This document shows, piece by piece, positions 20,721 to 40,742 of a stretch of DNA of 64,000 bases. The notes under the pieces are model-generated. The model made no database searches and had not been told where the DNA came from. It was given only the letters and a program-made list of their open reading frames with translations. Made by a program: the position numbers and the translations under genes. How positions within the stretch are numbered: position 1 is the stretch's first letter; every line of letters starts with the position of its first letter. Source of the stretch: a bacterium (lineage in GTDB: Bacteria; SAR324; NAC60-12); contig CBDBHR010000030.1 in NCBI GenBank assembly GCA_965205865.1, forward strand, positions 1,184,001 through 1,248,000, in the 5' to 3' direction.

Positions 20721-20992
20721 AAAAACCATGAAGGGATCGATTGTTTTTTTAAGTTAGTTGGTCAAGGTTTGGAAGACAACTATGAAGAGAGCGGGGGTAC
20801 GTTGACCTGAGGAATGAACAGTTGCTTTCATTGGAATTGAAGAGGTGATTCGAGAGGGAGTCTATGAGATTCAGATCAAGTTCTCAAATGGATTTCTCTT
20901 GAAGAGATTCAGAGATATCTTGAAAACAAAAAAAGACTGAAACGAACCATTTTGAAGTTTCCGGAGACACTCAGAAAGGATTGGAGCGAGAA

Positions 20993-21888
20993 ACTAGGTA
21001 AGCTCATAATTTTCCCTTCCGTTCAAAACTTATCCTTCGCAATAAGCTTACCGGCGAGAACTGTTCCCATGCGCCACGCAGATAAGGCTTCGAGTCCTCC
21101 GGCAATGACTTGCCAGGCTTCTACGCTCTTTGCACTTCGATGGCGCATGCTTCTCCGTTGATATCCCATTCGGCTCCACGTCGACCGGACATCAGGTGAC
21201 CACTGGGAATAGCTTCCAGGTGATTGGCAAGAGTTTCCGTCTTGATAAACTGATCAAATCGCGTGACTGCTGTTTGCACGAATTGTGAAGTTTGATAACG
21301 AACATGAATACGCGCCATCACGTCGAACGCCTGCTCTTTTCTCATATTCTGTACTTTATTGACGAATTCCCGGGCAAATCCTTCCTGTTGCAAGTCAATT
21401 GTCAGTTCCGTATTCAGGGCAACGGTCACATTGTTTTCCGTCTGCGCCAGTAAGCCTTCTTTTTCATGACGTTGCAAAAGCACGTCTTCGGGTGCTAAGA
21501 TAATAGTTTCTCCATCCAACTCCAATGTCGTCCGTTTGCCATCCCGCAGCCGAAAAATAGCGGAGGAATCGAGCTCCACAATGGTTCGGGCGACTTGTTT
21601 CATGCGAACTCCGAGCTTCGGTCCGAGCACACTGTAATTGGCCTTGGCGCTGTAAGTCACTAAATCTTCTTCATTATCAGCCACGACGACTTTCTTGATA
21701 TTCAACTCTTCCGTGATCAATTCTTCCATGTCGTTCAAAATCGCTACGGCTTCCGGGTCACGGGTCACCAGAAAAATGCTGGCAAGGGGTTGTCGTATTT
21801 TCAATTGATGCTTGTTACGCAAGGCGCGTCCCATGCTGACTGCCGAGAGCACCAATTCCATTTTCTTTTCGATTGCAGGGTCCCGATA
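20993..21888. repeat. ~895-bp direct repeat of 25519-26414 (ileS 3' end plus downstream DNA)
   Basis: Constant offset of 4526; about a dozen substitutions counted by eye. Confidence 0.95.
21121..21888 (-). pseudogene. ileS: Orphan 3' fragment of ileS
   Basis: The 246-aa ORF is nearly identical to the IleRS C-terminus (4 substitutions seen). Confidence 0.93.
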
Positions 21889-21901
21889 TTGGGGTCAGGC
21901 T

Positions 21902-23500
21902 GTGCGCCAGGAAAGCTGGCAAGAAATAGAGAGTGAAAGTCTCTTACTCGGTAAGGCAGTAACGACCCGCCGAGTCCCCGAGTCATGAGTGGTTATTCGC
22001 AAGGATAGGCGCTAAGCGTTGACAGGGGAGAACATAGGCTCGGTATTGAGCTCCGAAATCATAGTCTCAGGCGCTGACCTTGTGGTCTGGTGGGGAAGGC
22101 AATATCAACCGAAGGCGTTAGCGTGAGTCTCGGCTGAGCCTGGCGGAGTCAAAGACCCGGTGCATGTGTGGAAGTTTCTTGATCGGAACCTGGGAGATCC
22201 TGAAGACGACTGTCAACATTCTATTGGTAGTCGGATCGGGAAAATTAATAAATAACCCCGATATCTACGTCTTCAGGAAGTCGGACAAGTTCGTAGTAGC
22301 GTGAGCAGCCGACAAGGCTGTGGATTTTGGAGAGTGAAAGTCTCTCTGTCGTCAGTTTCCCATTCGGGCGACTAGCATATCCGGTGCGCTTAGCAGGTAA
22401 CTGCTTTGCGTTCTGCCCGGAAGTAAAAGTCACCGTCTGCTTTGGACGAGAGTCCATAGTGGGAGCCAACAGGGTGGCGAGCAAACCTGGAGGCCTGAAC
22501 ATTAGTGAATGATTGCAGCTCCGAAAGAGACTTCCGTCGTGAATTGGCTTGACGGTGTGTTGCCCAACCGCCGACCCGCTCGCTACTCGGGGAAGGCCGA
22601 AGTTCCAAGGGAAGTAATGGGAACAGGCACCTTGGAGGGAGCCGGAGTATGGATCCAAGCATCCAGGGAAAGATCCACAGAGATAACGTCGGGAAGGGCC
22701 AACTTCCAGCAGGGACTCGCAATAACCTGCAAGGACCTACCGTATAGGGTAACACCGAAATCGGCAGGAGGATTTTGGTCTGGCGCATGAGTCCGTATGA
22801 GCGATGAAGACCGGGTAACGCTGGTCGAGGGGATGCTTGGACATCTCCCTTTTGGAGGTAACACCTCTAAAAGGCAAAGGGGCTCTCGGTAAATGGCGGG
22901 CATTTCATGAACCACTGCCGAACTTGTGTCGGTCAAGAGTGTCACCACAAAGAATGTCGAGCTGGAGATCAAATCACTCACTCCAGGGGTGAATGCAGGC
23001 GAGTGCTTAAGCTTCGGATTGGGTGGGAAGGGTTTCTGGGGAAACGCTGTTGCTGCCAACCGGACTCGGGAAATCCGACCGTCCGGGATGAGAGGGGGGC
23101 TTGCGGAAACGTGATGCAGGGTCTGACGCCCTTTTGCCACGAAACCGGAAACGGGGGATACATTGGAAGTCGTTGACCTAAACATGCGCGCGCCGTATTT
23201 CTACCCGGCATGAAGCGGCGAACAATGAGATCATTTGCAGAGAGTAACAATGCAAAGGAAATCAACGGAGCCTGTGGAGCAAAGGGACTTGGCTGAGAGG
23301 AATTCTGCTTGCCCTCCTGTGTTCGGAACTCAGAGGCCGTAAAATCAGAGAGCGGTTTAAGCAGGGTGCGCCAAACGGCAACGTTTGAGCGTCTGACTCG
23401 AAGCAGGAGCCGGATGCGTTAGCAGCGCACGTCCGGATCTGTACCGGAGGAATGACGAAAGGTGGCTGGAAACCACTATAAGTCAGTTCTTTACGGTGAC
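21902..23500 (+). mobile_element. Group II intron (IIB-like) with its IEP ORF deleted, interrupted in domain III
   Basis: 5' GTGCG; EBS1 GGTCTG at 22084-22089; domain V GAGCCGGATGCG..CGCACGTCCGGATC at 23407-23439; domain VI with bulged A 23493; ends ...GAC at 23500. Confidence 0.9.
22301..23209 (+). mobile_element. Inner ORF-less group II intron (twintron)
   Basis: 5' GTGAG; EBS1 GCTACT at 22582-22587; domain V CAACCGGACTCGGGAAATCCGACCGTCCGGGATG at 23057-23090; long domain VI ending CTACCCGGC. Boundaries uncertain by about 1 nt. Confidence 0.85.
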
Positions 23501-23691
23501 TGCATACTTGTATTTAAATCGTGAAATGCCACTCAGACAAAGGACTGAGACTTTGTTCCTTTCTGAGACCTTCCTTGCTGAACAGACAACGCATTGCTTT
23601 TCAAACCTAGATGAGAGTCAATCTTCAGATAGATGAAAAACTCATGCACTTTAGACAATTTCTTAATACAAATACCCCAGCCTGCCCCCAT

Positions 23692-24759
23692 TTATGTGTT
23701 CGTCCTTTTTTTCGCATAGGACTTGAGTTTAGATTGATATTCGCTGATTCGGTGGTCCTTTCCAGCAATAGATGGGCCATTGGCAATCATCCTCCTGGCC
23801 AACCGAAAGACGCGAAATGGCATACCGAGGTTTGGAATGACTTTGAGCTTGGAGACATTCATCTCACAAGCCGTCAGGTAGCGCATATCACCTTGATGCA
23901 TGTAACCGCAGAAATTCCGTTCCAAACAATCCGCCAGTTCGCGATTTATAAAGGAAACAAGGAAGACAATACAATGAGTCACCCAAGAGGGCGGTACGCG
24001 GGGAACACCATCTGCTGCGTTGACGATACGGTATATTGGCGCGCGAATCTCTTCACCGAATTCCTCATTGCCCACACGCGGACTGCCATACGTGTAGCAG
24101 GCGGCTAGCGAATCACGTTCCAATTCCTCGCATGCGACAACTGCAAGAGCGCCACCCAGGGAATGACCGGTAATATAGAGGGAAAAACCTTCCGGTAAAT
24201 TATCGACTGCGGATTTGACTTGATCACTTACCTGATTGTACGCGGCTCGGAAACCGCTATGAATTTTAACGCCCGCTTCGCCCTTGTAAAATCGGGTATT
24301 CAAATCTGTCTTGACGTCATTCCAACTATTCGCTTCAGTACCGCGAAACGCGAGAACGGCGATTTTATCTTTTTCGCGTCCAGCAAGAAATGCCTGCGTA
24401 TCGTTTATGTTGAAGGTACAAATAAGATTGAAACAGGCATCAGCAAGAGCGTCTTTTAGTTTCTGAAGACCGGGAGGCGTCTTAGCGTCGCCATCGAGTT
24501 TTTGGGCGATATAATTCTTCAGATTTTCTTCCAGTTCCGTAATTCGTCCGGCCGTTCCCTCTCCTCTATCTTTTTTCCATGCAATTTTTGCAAGCTTGGC
24601 TATTGCATCGAGTACTTCCTTGAACTGGTATTCGCCCTCGAATTGCAAATATGCAAGCGCACTCATCTCGCTCATCATCCAAGCCGTGCGATCACTGTAT
24701 GCAGCCCGGTTTGTCGGCAAGACTTTCAAATTTTCCGGTACATTAAAGTAATCACTCAT
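23692..24759 (-). CDS. Class 3 lipase family protein
   Basis: AFRGTE, IHSGF, TGHSLGGALA, TYGSPRVG, DGVPRVP. Confidence 0.92.
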   Translation of the reverse strand: MSDYFNVPENLKVLPTNRAAYSDRTAWMMSEMSALAYLQFEGEYQFKEVLDAIAKLAKIAWKKDRGEGTAGRITELEENLKNYIAQKLDGDAKTPPGLQKLKDALADACFNLICTFNINDTQAFLAGREKDKIAVLAFRGTEANSWNDVKTDLNTRFYKGEAGVKIHSGFRAAYNQVSDQVKSAVDNLPEGFSLYITGHSLGGALAVVACEELERDSLAACYTYGSPRVGNEEFGEEIRAPIYRIVNAADGVPRVPPSWVTHCIVFLVSFINRELADCLERNFCGYMHQGDMRYLTACEMNVSKLKVIPNLGMPFRVFRLARRMIANGPSIAGKDHRISEYQSKLKSYAKKRTNT

Positions 24760-25061
24760 TTTGTGCGCTATCGTATTACAGTGTTTATCGAAGGGATGTT
24801 TGCTTAGATTGCAAGCCCAGTCTCGAAATGGTCTCCCGATGTGGTTTTCCCGGACGTCAAGCATCCCGCAAGAACATGGATTTTAAAAAAAAACATTTTC
24901 ATGTTCCTCTTTTTATTCAGAATTGCTCAACTCGAGTAAGAGTTAAAGCAGGGATGACAGGCTCGGTAATTTTCGAGCAATATTCACTGCTGTTTTTCCC
25001 AGAGCTTTCACTTGTTTCACCAAGGCGGCCTGATTGAGATTTTGTTGCGTCGCTTCCTGCA

Positions 25062-25523
25062 CTAGTGTATTGCCTGTTTAATACATTTGTATTATTGGTC
25101 ATTTGGTAGACAGGTTTGAGTTTGTTGATAATTTCTTCGGCAGTTTTAGTCCAAACATATGGTTTTGGGTTGCGATTGTGCGCTTCGATGTAACTATGGA
25201 TGGCTTCGGTCAACTCGAGCACGCTTTTGAAGGCGCCTCGCCGTCGCCACTTTCCAACGGAATTGCCGCTGGTTCCAAGCGTTTTGGCAATCTCTTGATT
25301 CTTAAGGCCATCAGCAGCCAACAGGATGATGCGCGCACGAAGAGCGTCTCGCATCGCTCCGGTCTGACGGCGTGCGGTTTTGCTCAATTCATCCCGTTCT
25401 TCCCGGGTCAGTTTTATACTTGGCGCTTTCCTAATGCTGTCTCCATATATGCAAATAAAAAGACAGCTCTAGTATAGCAAACCAAGGAATTATTTACACA
25501 TTAATAAAAGAGCGACACACTAG
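25062..25523 (-). mobile_element. Non-autonomous deletion derivative of the IS630 element at 8779-9963
   Basis: Same CTAG-bounded ends; about 723 bp deleted in frame, joining GKWRRR to GAFKSV. Confidence 0.92.
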
Positions 25524-25646
25524 GTAAGCTCATAATTATCCCTTCCGTTCAATACTTATCCTTCGCAACAAGCTTACCTGCGAGAACTGTTCCCATGCGC
25601 CACGCAGATGAGGCTTCGAGTCCTCCGGCAATGACTTGCCAGGCTT

Positions 25647-28600
25647 CTACGCTCTTTGCACTTCGATGGCGCATGCTTCTCCGTTGATATCCCATTCGGT
25701 TCCACGTCGACCGGACATCAGGTGACCACTGGGAATAGCTTCCAGGTGATTGGCAAGAGTTTCCGTCTTGATAAACTGATCAAATCGCGTGACTGCTGTT
25801 TGCACGGATTGTGAAGTTTGATAACGAACATGAATACGCGCCATCACGTCGAACGCCTGCTCTTTTCTCATATTCTGTACTTTATTGACGAATTCCCGGG
25901 CAAATCCTTCTTGTTGCAAGTCAATTGTCAGTTCCGTATTCAGGGCAACGGTCACATTGTTTTCCGTCTGCGCCAGTAAGCCTTCTTTTTCATGACGTTG
26001 CAAAAGCACGTCTTCGGGTGCTAAGATAATAGTTTCTCCATCCAACTCCAATGTCGTCCGTTTGCCATCCCGCAGCCGAAAAATAGCGGAGGAATCGAGC
26101 TCCGCAATGGTTCGGGCGACTTGTTTCATGCGAACTCCGAGCTTCGGTCCGAGCACCCTGTAATTGGCCTTGGCGCTGTAAGTCACTAAATCTTCTTCAT
26201 TGTCAGCCACGACGACTTTCTTGATATTCAACTCTTCCGTGATCAATTCTTCCATGTCGTTCAAAATCGCTACGGCTTCCGGGTCACGGGTCACCAGAAA
26301 AATGCTGGCAAGGGGTTGTCGTATTTTCAATTGATGCTTGTTACGCAAGGCGCGTCCCATGCTGACTGCCGAGAGCACCAATTCCATTTTCTTTTCGATT
26401 GCAGGGTCCCGATAGCGTCTCCGGACTTGGGGAAAGTTCGCCAGGTGCACGCTCTCTTCATCTCGTTCGTTTCGCAGATTGCGGTAAATTCCTTCGGCAA
26501 TAAAGGGCACAAAGGGTGCGATCACTTTGGAGAGCTCCACTAAGACCTGATAAAGTACCGCATAGGCTTCCTGCTTGTCTTTTCCCTGTCCCGCCTTCCA
26601 AAATCGGCGGCGGCTGCGTCTAATATACCAATTGGTCAACAAGTCGATGAAGCCCACGAAAGGAGCAACGGATTTATTCAAATCGTAGGCGTCCATGCTG
26701 GCTCTCACTGTTTCGATCAGTCCCTGCAATTTGGACAATATCCAGCGATCCAGGGGATTGGAGGGCATGCTCAGTATTTCCCCGGAGGGCTGCCAGCGGT
26801 CGATAGCGGCATAGGTGGTCAGAAAGGCCAGAGCATTCCAAAGGGGCAGCAAAATAGAACGGGTGGTGTCCACCAGTCCTTTTTCCGAAAACCTGAGATC
26901 GTCTCCGCGTACTGCCGGGGAATTGAGCATGTAGAGACGAATGGCATCCGCTCCATATTGGTCCAACATGTTGATAGGATCCGGATAGTTTTTCAGTCGT
27001 TTGCTCATTTTTTTACCATCTTCAGCCAGGACGAGTCCGTTGACGATGACATTGTGAAAGGCCGGTTTGTTGTACAATGCCGTCCCGACGACGACCAGAG
27101 AATAGAACCAGCCTCTTGTTTGATCCAACCCCTCACAAATAAAATCCGCAGGGAAATTGGCGTCAAATCTTTCTTTGTTTTCAAAAGGGTAATGTTCCTG
27201 ACCATAGGGCATAGAGCCGGATTCGAACCAACAATCGAGCACTTCGGGAATCCGCTTATATATTTTGTCATTTTGAACTATCACCAGATCGTCCACCAAG
27301 TGTTTGTGCAAATCTTCCACTTTTTGTCCGCTCGCTTCTTCCAGTTCTGCCACGCTACCGAAACAGAGACAATCTCCATCCTCACTCTTCCAAATCGGCA
27401 ATGGGGTTCCCCAGAAACGATTTCGACTGATGGCCCAGTCTCTCGCATTTTCCAACCATTTGCCAAAACGTCCATCCCGGATGTGCCCCGGTACCCAATG
27501 AATGGTCTGATTATTTTGCACCATCTGGTCTTTGATTGCTTCCACCTTGACGAACCAGGTCGAGATGGCTTTATAGATGAGGGGGGTGTCCGTTCGCCAG
27601 CAGAAGGGATAACTGTGTTCGATGGTTTCGTGTCTGAGAATTTTGTTCTTGTCTTTCAAATAGCGGATGATCGTTTTGTCGGCCGCCTTGATATTCAACC
27701 CTGCCAGGAATCCCATGTAGGATTGAAAATTTCCGTCATCGTCCACCGGGTCGAACAGGGGTAAACCTTCCCGCAGGCCAATCCGCAAGTCATCTTCACC
27801 AAAGGCTGGCGCTTGGTGGACAATGCCGGTTCCACTTTCATCACTGATATAATCGTCGACCAGCACCCGCCATACCCGGCTGCTGTCCACTCGTCCAATG
27901 GCAAAGTCAAACGGTGGATGATAAGTTTTGTTCCGCAAATCGCTGCCTTTCAAGGCGTCAAGCACTTCATATTCACCGGCTTGCCAATAAGCAGGTATGC
28001 GGTTGGTTGCCAGGTAATAGTTTTCTCCACTGGCCTTTTCCCTGATTTTGACGTAATCTATTTCCGCTCCGACACAGCATGCCAGATTTGCGGGGATGGT
28101 CCAGGGAGTGGTGGTCCATCCTAAATAATAAGTGTTTTCCTCATCAGTCGCCTGGCATTTGAAAGTAATCGAAGGATCCTGCGTCTCCTGATAGTTGAGG
28201 TTGGCTTCGAAATTGGAAAGAGGAGTTGAAAGCCGCCAGGAATAAGGCACCACTTTTCTGCCTTCGTAGATGAGATTCTTCTGCCATAATTGTTTCATCA
28301 CCCACCAAACAGATTCCATGTAGGAGCGATCCATGGTTTTGTAATCGTTGTCAAAATCTACCCAACGGGCCATACGATCCACGGTTTCCCGCCATTCCCT
28401 GGTGTATCGTAATACGATTTTGCGACATGCTTCATTGTAATTCCCTATACCAAATTCGATGATATCCGGACGCCCTTCTAATTGGAGCGCTTGTTCCACC
28501 TCAAACTCGACCGGCAGTCCGTGGCAATCCCAACCAAAACGCCGTTCCACTCGATGGCCTCGCATGGTTTTGTAACGAGGAATGACGTCTTTGATGGTAC

Positions 28601-40334: not shown

Positions 40335-40742
40335 AGTCCCTGAGGGACGAAAGGAAGTAGCCCAGCGATTCATCGCTGGGAACAAAAGATAGTCTCCTTC
40401 AAAGTCCCGGAGGGACGATACAACAATGAGGTTTCATGTCCCATTCCTACATCAGCAATCATCTTCATGGTGTCTTTTGCGCAAAAAACCGAGTTGAGAT
40501 GATGACTCCTGAAATCAAAAAGCGCCTTTTTCCTTATTTGACATCATGAGCGTTATATTTGGGAGTAACTCGCTGGATCGAAGAAGTGTCGTCCCTCCGG
40601 GACTAGCTGAGGAGGAGGGGGGTTCCTTTCCCAGCGATGAATCGCTGGGCTATTCCCTTTCGTCCCTCTGGGACTAGCTGAGGAGGGGGTTCCTTTCCCA
40701 GCGATGAATCGCTGGGCTATTCCCTTTCGTCCCTCCAGGACT
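40335..40742. mobile_element. REP-like inverted repeats flanking a deleted IS200/RAYT-like Y1 tnpA remnant (40436-40568)
   Basis: GTCCC..GGGAC and CCCAGCGA..TCGCTGGG palindromes in opposite orientations. Remnant MSHSYISNHLHGVFCAKNR...PYL / ERYIWE*. Confidence 0.75.

Follow-up and report, generated by a model that had tools for sequence, protein, structure and literature searches.

Anatomy of the nest

We identified a three-level nest in the 64,000-nucleotide stretch of DNA analysed here (the window), between a duplicated 3' fragment of ileS and a lipase gene and antisense to both. An ORF-less intron lies within an ORF-less group II intron, which in turn lies within the end of a MITE-like repeat. 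The nest is composed of the following parts.

21891-21901, forward strand: left end of the MITE-like repeat (GGGGTCAGGCT), which serves as 5' exon and IBS of the outer intron
21902-22301, forward strand: 5' segment of the outer intron; it begins GUGCG and contains domains I and II (the latter at about 22199-22277) and the first part of domain III with the stem strand 22286-22292
22302-23209, forward strand: inner ORF-less intron ("A"), 908 nt, from UGAGC... to ...CUACCCGGC
23210-23500, forward strand: 3' segment of the outer intron; domain III continues to 23291 and is followed by what is left of domain IV, by domain V (23406-23438) and by domain VI, in which A23493 is bulged
23501-23689, forward strand: remainder of the MITE-like repeat, with its right inverted end at 23665-23689

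The first-pass annotation of this DNA had proposed a protein-free nest of this kind, and the proposal is borne out by the boundaries, by the uninterrupted copies and by exon-binding loops complementary to the flanks in both introns. No Pfam family was found on the five open frames tested inside the nest (89-200 aa), and none of the 11 RVT_1 matches in the genome falls inside the window, in agreement with the earlier statement that neither the nest nor the window encodes a reverse transcriptase (RT). The genome-wide counts refer to a 92%-complete assembly of 30 contigs, in which repeats may be collapsed or missing.

We regard the first level as MITE-like because it is short, non-coding and multi-copy and has inverted ends. 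Without the introns it is about 200 nt long, with ends at 21891-21915 (split by the introns) and 23665-23689. The two 25-nt ends agree at about 20 of 25 positions by eye, and GGGGGCAGGCT is found within the right end, on the minus strand at 23679-23689. Eight related stretches occur elsewhere in the genome at 76-91% identity, and four of these eight are nearly full-length at 87-89%. The terminal 10-mer of the repeat, GGGTCAGGCY, has 164 genomic occurrences and stands at the head of several short repeat families. By eye, an ATT may be present on either side of the repeat.

The outer intron

The outer intron runs from GUGCG at 21902 to ...GAC at 23500; these termini and the bulged A23493 were read from the sequence. 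Its domain I is matched by the Rfam model RF02005 (21936-22158, 168 bits, E 9e-49, gathering score 49), and domains V-VI are matched by RF00029 (23405-23500, 31 bits, E 0.0012), under the gathering score of 40. With the latter model the other outer copies in the genome, ORF-bearing ones included, score 25-32 bits. The group II assignment made from the sequence at first reading is well founded on the domain I match. The domain III stem proposed at the same time, CAAGUUC (22286-22292) with GGACUUG (23285-23291), is likewise paired in the minimum-energy fold of an uninterrupted copy (z -3.07). One candidate exon-binding element can be placed.

22137-22143, forward strand: outer EBS1 candidate AGCCUGG, which pairs with UCAGGCU at 21895-21901 by six Watson-Crick pairs and one G-U, read from the sequence

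At least 36 copies of the outer intron are present in the genome, counted as those that carry at least 384 nt of the 5' part. The EBS1 loop GAGCCUGG is present in every copy that could be read by pattern (21 of the 36), whether the flank ends in T or in C. The first 399 nt (21902-22300) share 96-100% identity with the 35 other copies, and the copies are mosaic in sequence. Exactly GGGTCAGGCY stands directly before 25 of the 36, with otherwise unrelated flanks. Sixteen copies are contiguous and ORF-less, and nine have an ORF-type joint.

The ORF-deletion joint of the window's outer intron lies at 23379/23380, in the domain IV remnant, and without the insert this ORF-less derivative is 692 nt long. 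ORF-bearing copies have about 1265 additional bases at position 170 of the 3' segment. Five of the nine copies with an ORF-type joint are complete and carry an RVT_1 frame of 460-477 aa at the deletion point, and more partial copies also carry an RT/maturase. Given that no such gene is present here and that five complete siblings have one, we consider the window's outer intron to be a non-autonomous derivative. The suggestion that it could borrow its protein from elsewhere is thus backed by genes in its own family.

The inner intron

The boundaries of the inner intron rest on the comparison of filled with empty sites, on the alignment of its family together with the EBS1/flank pairing, and on the joints and contig ends in public runs. 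Of the 32 uninterrupted sites that the junction pattern found, 31 read TAGCG/ATGAAG (the slash marks the insertion point), so that the precise insert is 22302-23209 and G22301 belongs to the outer intron. Excising the insert yields this same junction, as in a twintron, and rebuilds the uninterrupted-copy sequence letter for letter. The claim of the first-pass annotation that domain III of the outer intron is split by another intron stands, but the uninterrupted sites, the family alignment and the contig ends rule out the reading of 22301-23209 and with it the length of 909 nt. The 5' start "GUGAG" at 22301 was also a misreading: the insert begins UGAGC at U22302, and the apparent motif is a coincidence. 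A further explanation of the 5' junction, by loss of one nucleotide or by joining at a microhomology, was abandoned when relatives proved to begin with GGAGC.

The joint 22301>23210 is present in three of four public runs, and contigs of run X9 start at 22302 and end at 23209. The joint is uninformative on splicing, because about 30 uninterrupted genomic copies yield the same one. Contigs of RNA libraries from two studies (X15 and X17) contain the inner element; such libraries may contain DNA, and multi-copy DNA confounds depth, so we draw no conclusion on expression or splicing from these runs.

The target site, guide loops and domains of the inner intron are as follows.

22295-22301, forward strand: inner IBS1 AGUAGCG, located in the basal internal loop of outer domain III, with seven of seven Watson-Crick pairs to 22581-22587
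22328-22504, forward strand: inner domain I core, RF02003 match of 33.2 bits, E 3.7e-5, under the gathering score of 49
22529-22533, forward strand: weak inner EBS2 candidate GACUU, against AAGUU at 22287-22291, four Watson-Crick pairs and one G-U, by eye
22581-22587, forward strand: inner EBS1 CGCUACU, within a 9-nt hairpin loop
23057-23090, forward strand: inner domain V, with AAC for the AGC triad, a 2-nt bulge (CC) and a pentaloop (GAAAU)
23094-23206, forward strand: long inner domain VI (about 115 nt), with a bulged A at 23203, the seventh base from the 3' end, as branch-site candidate

The pairing of EBS1 GCUACU (22582-22587) with AGUAGC (22295-22300), noted at first reading, holds and grows to 7 bp with C22581-G22301. 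Both junctions are precise, with no target duplication. The second proposed pairing, of the loop UGAAUU (22540-22545) with AGUUCG, is present as letters, but we rejected the loop as EBS2: it is a conserved family motif (GAAGUYG), and the flank pairing of relatives maps to about 22527-22533. At that alignment position six of 13 relatives have 6-7 bp of flank complementarity, and the window copy has no flank match of at least 6 bp.

The first-pass annotation described a complete set of group II landmarks in the inner intron. EBS1 and domain I, whose exon-binding loop is complementary to the 5' flank, are present, the latter with the sub-gathering RF02003 match, but the covariance-model match expected at 23057-23209 is absent: no Rfam model matches there even at E 10, nor does RF00029 at E 1 in the genome-wide search. 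Domain V was instead recognised by comparison with relatives. Across the family its closing pair covaries (GC in eight, CG in three, AU in two and GU in one), as does the upper stem (UA in nine and CG in five). A gap-free alignment of the hairpin with the canonical domain V of the genome's second nested intron has 22 of 33 positions alike. The basal helices of domain VI are conserved and covary in the family alignment. Folded alone, 23040-23215 has a minimum-energy structure no better than those of shuffled sequences (z 0.39). We set aside a possible covariation between the first base and the last but one (U...G in the relative L058 and in the window copy, G...A in the others), as the 3' end of L058 is uncertain.

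Canonical bacterial group II introns, as described in a review (Zimmerly and Semper 2015, PMC4424553), have an AGC or CGC triad in domain V. The inner intron resembles them in its domain I exon-binding loops, in a short domain V with a 2-nt bulge, in the bulged A of domain VI and in precise insertion guided by base pairing. It differs from that description in beginning UGAGC (GGAGC in relatives) in place of GUGYG, in having AAC, whose central A faces a GA that is unpaired, in place of that triad, in the length of its domain VI and in having no ORF.

The lineage of the inner intron

[quoted passage not shown] The hairpin pattern occurs in at least 118 stretches of public genomes. The 23 such hairpins that we examined occupy 22 loci and represent, by record title, at least seven phyla; the sources include the cultured Bacillota Niallia taxi, Gracilibacillus massiliensis, a Paenibacillus and a Pseudalkalibacillus. 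Shared traits are a length of about 900 nt, the absence of an ORF, a GGAGC-type 5' end, AAC for AGC and a long domain VI. Outside the search pattern, 12 of the 13 relatives in the alignment have 55-63% identity with the window copy and one has 51%; three loci whose upstream DNA does not align are about 40% identical. RF02003 matches eight of 20 loci, at 38.7-62.3 bits. A DNA search of 63 other genomes of the same order found no match to the inner intron.

The family has a conserved multi-domain structure with covariation. RNAalifold predicted 178 pairs, of which 122 show compensatory changes (43-53 in slid controls). A structure predicted from the 13 relatives without the window copy is kept in that copy at 170 of 183 pairs, as against 58-91 in slid controls. 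Moreover, an EBS1/flank pairing of at least 6 bp ends exactly at the GGAGC or UGAGC start in 12 of 14 family members. Since the conserved fold of the lineage, non-canonical domain V included, has been kept, we predict, as the most likely case, that the inner element is active as a ribozyme.

At seven of 22 loci the member is surrounded by a different group II intron or by the RT gene of one. From these comparisons we assign the inner element to what appears to be a widespread, cosmopolitan, non-canonical lineage that is often found inside other introns. In the literature searched, we found no description of an ORF-less lineage with an AAC triad or a GGAGC start. We tentatively suggest, as a possibility that falls short of an even chance, that this is an unclassified cosmopolitan lineage of protein-less group II introns of about 900 nt (with a GGAGC-type end, AAC opposite one additional unpaired base and an enlarged domain VI), which may parasitise other group II introns by homing into their RNA domains or RT genes and using their proteins, and which would be invisible to surveys based on RTs or on standard domain V.

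Origin of the nest

The genome contains four copies of the inner intron, all at one common site of the outer intron, and a 197-nt 5' fragment elsewhere. All four invaded outer copies are themselves ORF-less. The inner copies show no substitution across 908 nt and a single 1-nt indel, and their host outer introns carry different alleles at distances of 29 and 39 nt from the insert and have private changes, four in the copy on contig C28 (577 nt of outer sequence) and two in that on C29 (691 nt). If changes were evenly spread, the chance that all six would miss the insert is about 0.004 by our own arithmetic. Such identity in hosts that differ by alleles and private changes argues for repeated separate homing, and the inner element appears to have entered several outer copies separately. 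As the outer copies are mosaic, gene conversion could yield some of the host differences after a single insertion.

We consider it likely that the nest was built by successive RNA-guided retrohoming events. The starting point would have been a short repeat with inverted ends between the ileS fragment and the lipase gene. A 692-nt group II derivative, which had lost its RT gene by a domain IV deletion, would then have inserted after GGGGUCAGGCU in the repeat end, guided by its own EBS1 and presumably mobilised by the RT/maturase of intact siblings. Finally, a 908-nt intron of an unrelated, cosmopolitan lineage would have inserted after AGUAGCG at the base of outer domain III, with its own EBS1 as guide; in this genome such an entry would have taken place on at least three separate occasions.

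Searches of this genome by blastn, by RF02003 and by the AAC-type hairpin pattern turned up no relative of the inner intron that carries an RT, and the helper of this intron is thus a guess. The inner-intron type of this pattern occurs only in the four copies, and the genome's RF02003 matches were ruled out as RT-bearing relatives, being other intron types or fragments. An RT-bearing intron on contig C30 (877.9-880.0 kb) also has an AAC triad and was rejected for its unrelated 5' end. Most plausibly, the RT of the inner intron would be supplied in trans by the outer family that it parasitises.

Alternatively, the inner intron may have entered once, after which the 1.6-kb twintron would have been copied whole by the machinery of the outer intron, so that no activity of the inner one would be needed. 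Mohr et al. (PMC2882425) name this as a possible route, the four inner copies share site and junctions, and a 3' allele, T at column 39, is common to the hosts at C29:627016 and C30:788483. We nevertheless consider this route unlikely, as there are three host haplotypes within 40 nt of the insert and six private changes in the hosts against none in the 908 nt, and as the retention of the family's base pairs would be unexpected in a decaying passenger. The contigs of X9 begin and end exactly at the boundaries of the element, whereas a contig of run X2 extends 30 nt into the outer intron, which suggests more than one context of the inner element in X9.

Still less probable, in our estimation, is spread at the DNA level by homologous recombination or gene conversion among the roughly 40 near-identical outer copies, with no RNA step. 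The visible mosaicism of these copies and the long flanking homology (400 nt 5' and 290 nt 3' of the insert) would favour such exchange, but conversion tracts would have to stop within 29 nt 3' of the insert in at least two transfers, and the insertion point is the one predicted by the EBS1 loop, a rule that relatives keep at unrelated targets. The notion that the insert is another structured RNA gene or an insertion element that merely resembles domain I, which might be entertained for its lack of a GUGYG start, an AGC triad and an Rfam match on domains V-VI, is very improbable in view of the domain I matches in the insert and its relatives, the domain V-like hairpin with its 2-nt bulge and likeness to the canonical form, the bulged A 7 nt from the end, and the exon-binding loop matched to the flank of a precise insertion.

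Comparison with known systems

Among the closest counterparts of the nest are the TeI3/TeI4 introns and twintrons of Thermosynechococcus elongatus, as described by Mohr, Ghanem and Lambowitz (2010, PMC2882425). There too one family has proliferated and a single domain IV deletion gave rise to ORF-less copies served by siblings; the targets into which ORF-less introns home are insertion sequences and a conserved site in another intron. According to that account, ORF-less introns are mobilised in trans by the proteins of other introns, and twintrons in which the inner introns are identical and the outer ones diverged are interpreted as separate recent insertions. The systems differ in that inner and outer introns are described there as close relatives and the site as lying in domain IV between two start codons, whereas the inner lineage here is unrelated, has non-canonical ends and domain V, and uses a site in domain III. 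The ORF-less state of the four invaded copies, and our failure to find an RT-bearing inner relative in the genome, are further differences from the system as reported.

The nests of Methanosarcina acetivorans (Dai and Zimmerly 2003, as summarised in PMC4424553) likewise involve repeated site-specific homing into group II introns outside host genes, and include both ORF-less and RT-bearing introns. In that summary they are archaeal, reach up to five levels and arise by homing into the ORFs of related introns; in the present case a bacterial repeat contains two levels of intron, and the target of homing is a ribozyme domain. The intron that Pfreundt and Hess (2015, PMC4649490) described in Trichodesmium erythraeum is, like ours, a bacterial group II twintron, and their study provides experimental proof that inner-then-outer splicing can occur. 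That element, of 5400 nt, lies in a conserved protein gene, where splicing matters to the host, whereas the present one is intergenic and known from its sequence; any splicing order in it, such as the inner-first order that the first-pass annotation supposed, would be presumptive.

Implications

Given that twintrons and ORF-less introns mobilised in trans are already known, the nest itself is one more instance of a known arrangement, and its less expected part is the inner partner. A large survey used RF00029 to locate introns (PMC8919778), and this model misses the lineage to which the inner intron belongs. Several members of the lineage come from cultured Bacillota, so that splicing and mobility can be tested directly.

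Group II introns and the spliceosome share a catalytic core. A domain V that is conserved, covaries and carries AAC would amount to a natural experiment on that core. The genome itself, with about 40 target sites, is a compact setting in which to study how layers of parasites spread.

The nested introns and their boundaries

The nest itself is genuine and belongs to a known kind. The outer group II intron occupies 21902-23500 and, as read from the sequence, begins with GUGCG and ends with GAC. Its domain I matched the Rfam model RF02005 at 21936-22158 (168 bits) and its domain V-VI matched RF00029 at 23405-23500 (31 bits, E 0.0012), under the curators' threshold; other copies in the genome, including those bearing a reverse transcriptase (RT), scored 25-32 bits with RF00029. 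The catalytic triad is AGC, with G and not U opposite the A.

Searching the genome (30 contigs, 92% complete), we identified 36 outer copies retaining 384 nt or more of the 5' part, 16 of them contiguous 692-nt ORF-less copies and nine with the joint typical of the ORF-bearing form. Five of these nine are complete; at position 170 of the 3' segment they carry ~1265 extra bases, which encode a frame of 460-477 aa with an RVT_1 domain. None of the genome's 11 RVT_1 matches lies in the window. The RT-bearing siblings and their extra bases indicate that the window's outer copy is a domain IV deletion derivative, which the intact siblings could serve in trans. On contig C26 (239010-240179) two outer copies lie head to tail: the second, 90% identical and carrying a 30-nt insertion, follows the terminal GAC of the first without a gap.

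Of the 32 uninterrupted outer sites that the junction pattern matched, 31 have GTAGTAGCG joined to ATGAAGCGG, and all four filled copies read GTAGTAGCG-TGAGC...CCCGGC-ATGAAGCGG, so that the only precise insertion is 22302-23209, 908 nt. The first-pass annotation had placed a 909-nt insert at 22301-23209; its 3' end holds, and the 5' end moves to 22302. A GUGAG start at 22301 was rejected: G22301 is a base of the outer intron, and the GUGAG arises by coincidence. Relatives from other genomes have GGAGC at the position aligned to the insert start. For 12 of the 14 sequences of the family, the counterpart of hairpin loop 22578-22589 forms 6-8 bp with the 5' flank, and this pairing stops precisely at the boundary. 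Contigs from three of four public runs contain the joint 22301>23210, which skips the 908 nt, and in one run (X9) element contigs begin at 22302 and end at 23209. The stem CAAGUUC/GGACUUG is present in the predicted fold of an uninterrupted copy, and the insertion point falls among the unpaired bases immediately within it, bearing out the earlier proposal that the insert splits domain III.

The surrounding repeat

The exact sequence GGGTCAGGCY precedes 25 of the 36 outer copies, the flanks being otherwise unrelated, and occurs 164 times in the genome, at the head of several short repeat families. It is followed by the outer intron in 26 cases (24 GTGCGCCA and two ATGCGCCA), and the outer loop AGCCUGG (22137-22143) pairs with UCAGGCU (21895-21901). 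The window's repeat comprises:

21891-21901 and 23501-23689, the repeat, split by the introns
23679-23689, imperfect inverted end of the repeat

Eight relatives elsewhere in the genome are 76-91% identical, four of them nearly full-length. The earlier label of transposon terminal repeat appears fair. Fragments of a further intron type, with the 5' end GUAUGCGG, occur on contig C30 from 272497 onward and on C25 at ~64190 (minus strand); they adjoin this repeat end on its other strand, at a junction of ...GCAAGCCTGACC with GTATGCGG. The repeat's ends are thus targets for at least two intron families.

The nest is antisense to both neighbouring genes. A 905-bp direct duplication (20984-21888 and 25510-26414, 98.6% identical) spans the last 246 codons of ileS and downstream DNA; the ileS copy at 21121-21861 is a C-terminal protein fragment, 98% identical. 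The duplication stops about 2 nt short of the repeat's left end (21891). Between its two copies lie the nest and a class-3 lipase gene (23692-24864, minus strand); rearrangement or misassembly could account for it. Elsewhere in the window, 40335-40742 contains three Acido-Lenti-1 (RF01687) matches of 51-54 bits.

Spread of the inner element

The genome has four copies of the inner element, all at the same site in outer introns, and a 197-nt 5' fragment in another context. The four copies show no substitutions over 908 nt, with one extra G in one copy. Their hosts carry three combinations of alleles at the positions 29 and 39 nt beyond the insert's 3' end, each of them also present in uninterrupted copies, and have private changes (four in 577 nt on C28, two in 691 nt on C29); by our own arithmetic the chance of all six falling outside the insert is ~0.004 if changes fell evenly. 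In T. elongatus, Mohr et al. (PMC2882425) took this same pattern to indicate that the insertions were recent and separate. The outer copies are mosaic, and gene conversion among them, or copying of the composite, could contribute, although we consider both together improbable.

A search of 63 other genomes from the order gave no match to the inner element. The outer intron occurs in the sister genome (90% identity) and, among 20 relatives searched, in a single further genus. From these distributions the inner element looks like a recent arrival. Word depths in run X9 were ~497 for the inner element contig, ~198-200 for outer pieces and 15.5 for the unique flank (a 97%-identical strain), contig depths not being copy numbers; that population may hold many more copies of the inner element than this genome does, perhaps in several contexts. 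RNA-library contigs of two studies also contain it, which DNA carry-over and copy number preclude reading as expression.

A lineage of ORF-less introns

Domain I of the insert gave a sub-threshold match to RF02003 at 22328-22504 (33 bits, E 3.7e-5). Covariance hits had been anticipated at both domain V/VI stretches; the outer one was obtained, sub-threshold, and the Rfam search of 23057-23209 returned no match, an outcome that counts against the inner half of the first-pass reading. The hairpin at 23057-23090 is nevertheless built like domain V, with a six-pair lower stem, a four-pair upper stem, a 2-nt bulge on the 3' strand and a GAAAU loop, and by our count shares 22 of 33 ungapped positions with the canonical domain V of the genome's second nested intron. 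It has AAC where AGC is expected.

A degenerate form of this hairpin, scanned over a collection of species genomes, matched at least 118 stretches, 80 of which were taken further. These included 23 hairpins in 22 loci of the window's type, with a common long domain VI ending ...UUUCUAUCCCGAC, from at least seven phyla by record title, cultured Bacillota included. Another 47 had AAC in a standard-size hairpin; an open frame ends just before the hairpin in 17 of the 40 such loci with enough upstream DNA, and the tails of these frames appear to resemble the C-termini of this genome's intron proteins. AAC thus does not reflect a defect peculiar to the copy in the window. This genome also has one RT-bearing intron of a different family (C30:877955-880040, 463-aa frame) with an AAC triad, there opposite A, and a ~400-nt remnant of its family, keeping only the 5' part and domain VI, lies at C30:42650-43060.

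We aligned the window copy with 13 relatives over the whole length (~840-940 nt). Outside the search pattern 12 of the 13 are 55-63% identical to it and one 51%; three loci with non-aligning upstream DNA gave ~40%. No RT frame was found ahead of the hairpin in seven loci inspected. RNAalifold predicted 178 pairs, 122 of them with at least one compensatory double change, against 43-53 in controls with partners slid by 1-3 columns, and the window copy keeps 170 of the 183 pairs predicted from the 13 relatives alone (slid controls, 58-91). The domain V closing pair covaries (GC 8, CG 3, AU 2, GU 1), as does the upper stem (UA 9, CG 5); invariance of the lower stem carries no weight because the search pattern fixed it. 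In the predicted structure all 14 sequences pair the triad's first A with U; the middle A lies opposite unpaired GA. The basal helices of domain VI are conserved and covarying, with the bulged A, seventh from the end, at 23203 in the window.

Other introns as hosts

At least seven of the 22 loci have another group II intron around or next to the lineage member, a floor because flanks are only ~0.35-1 kb. A domain I model is split by or adjacent to the member in L034, L038, L060 and L092, and an RT/maturase frame is interrupted or adjacent in L034, L038, L042, L060, L066 and L088; in L042 the member sits within the RT frame and splits it.

Three other outer copies contain a second ORF-less intron of ~903 nt (B), unrelated to the inner element, at a position only 4 nt upstream of the site that the window's insert uses:

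C28:326614-327516 (L031:614-1517), intron B
C29:728189-729062, minus strand, intron B
C30:654280-655123, intron B

The three are 94-96% alike, with canonical domains V-VI (RF00029, 44 bits). The precise insert starts GCGCAC, so the GU of the apparent GUGCG belongs to the host.

Among the proteins encoded by the lineage's host introns, several resemble this genome's outer-family protein most closely (in L042, for example, at 68% identity across 75 residues). This likeness is the one indication that the inner element may be served by the protein of the outer family. We found no description of the lineage in the literature searched; the assignment of the inner intron to a non-canonical, widespread lineage of ORF-less introns is well supported.
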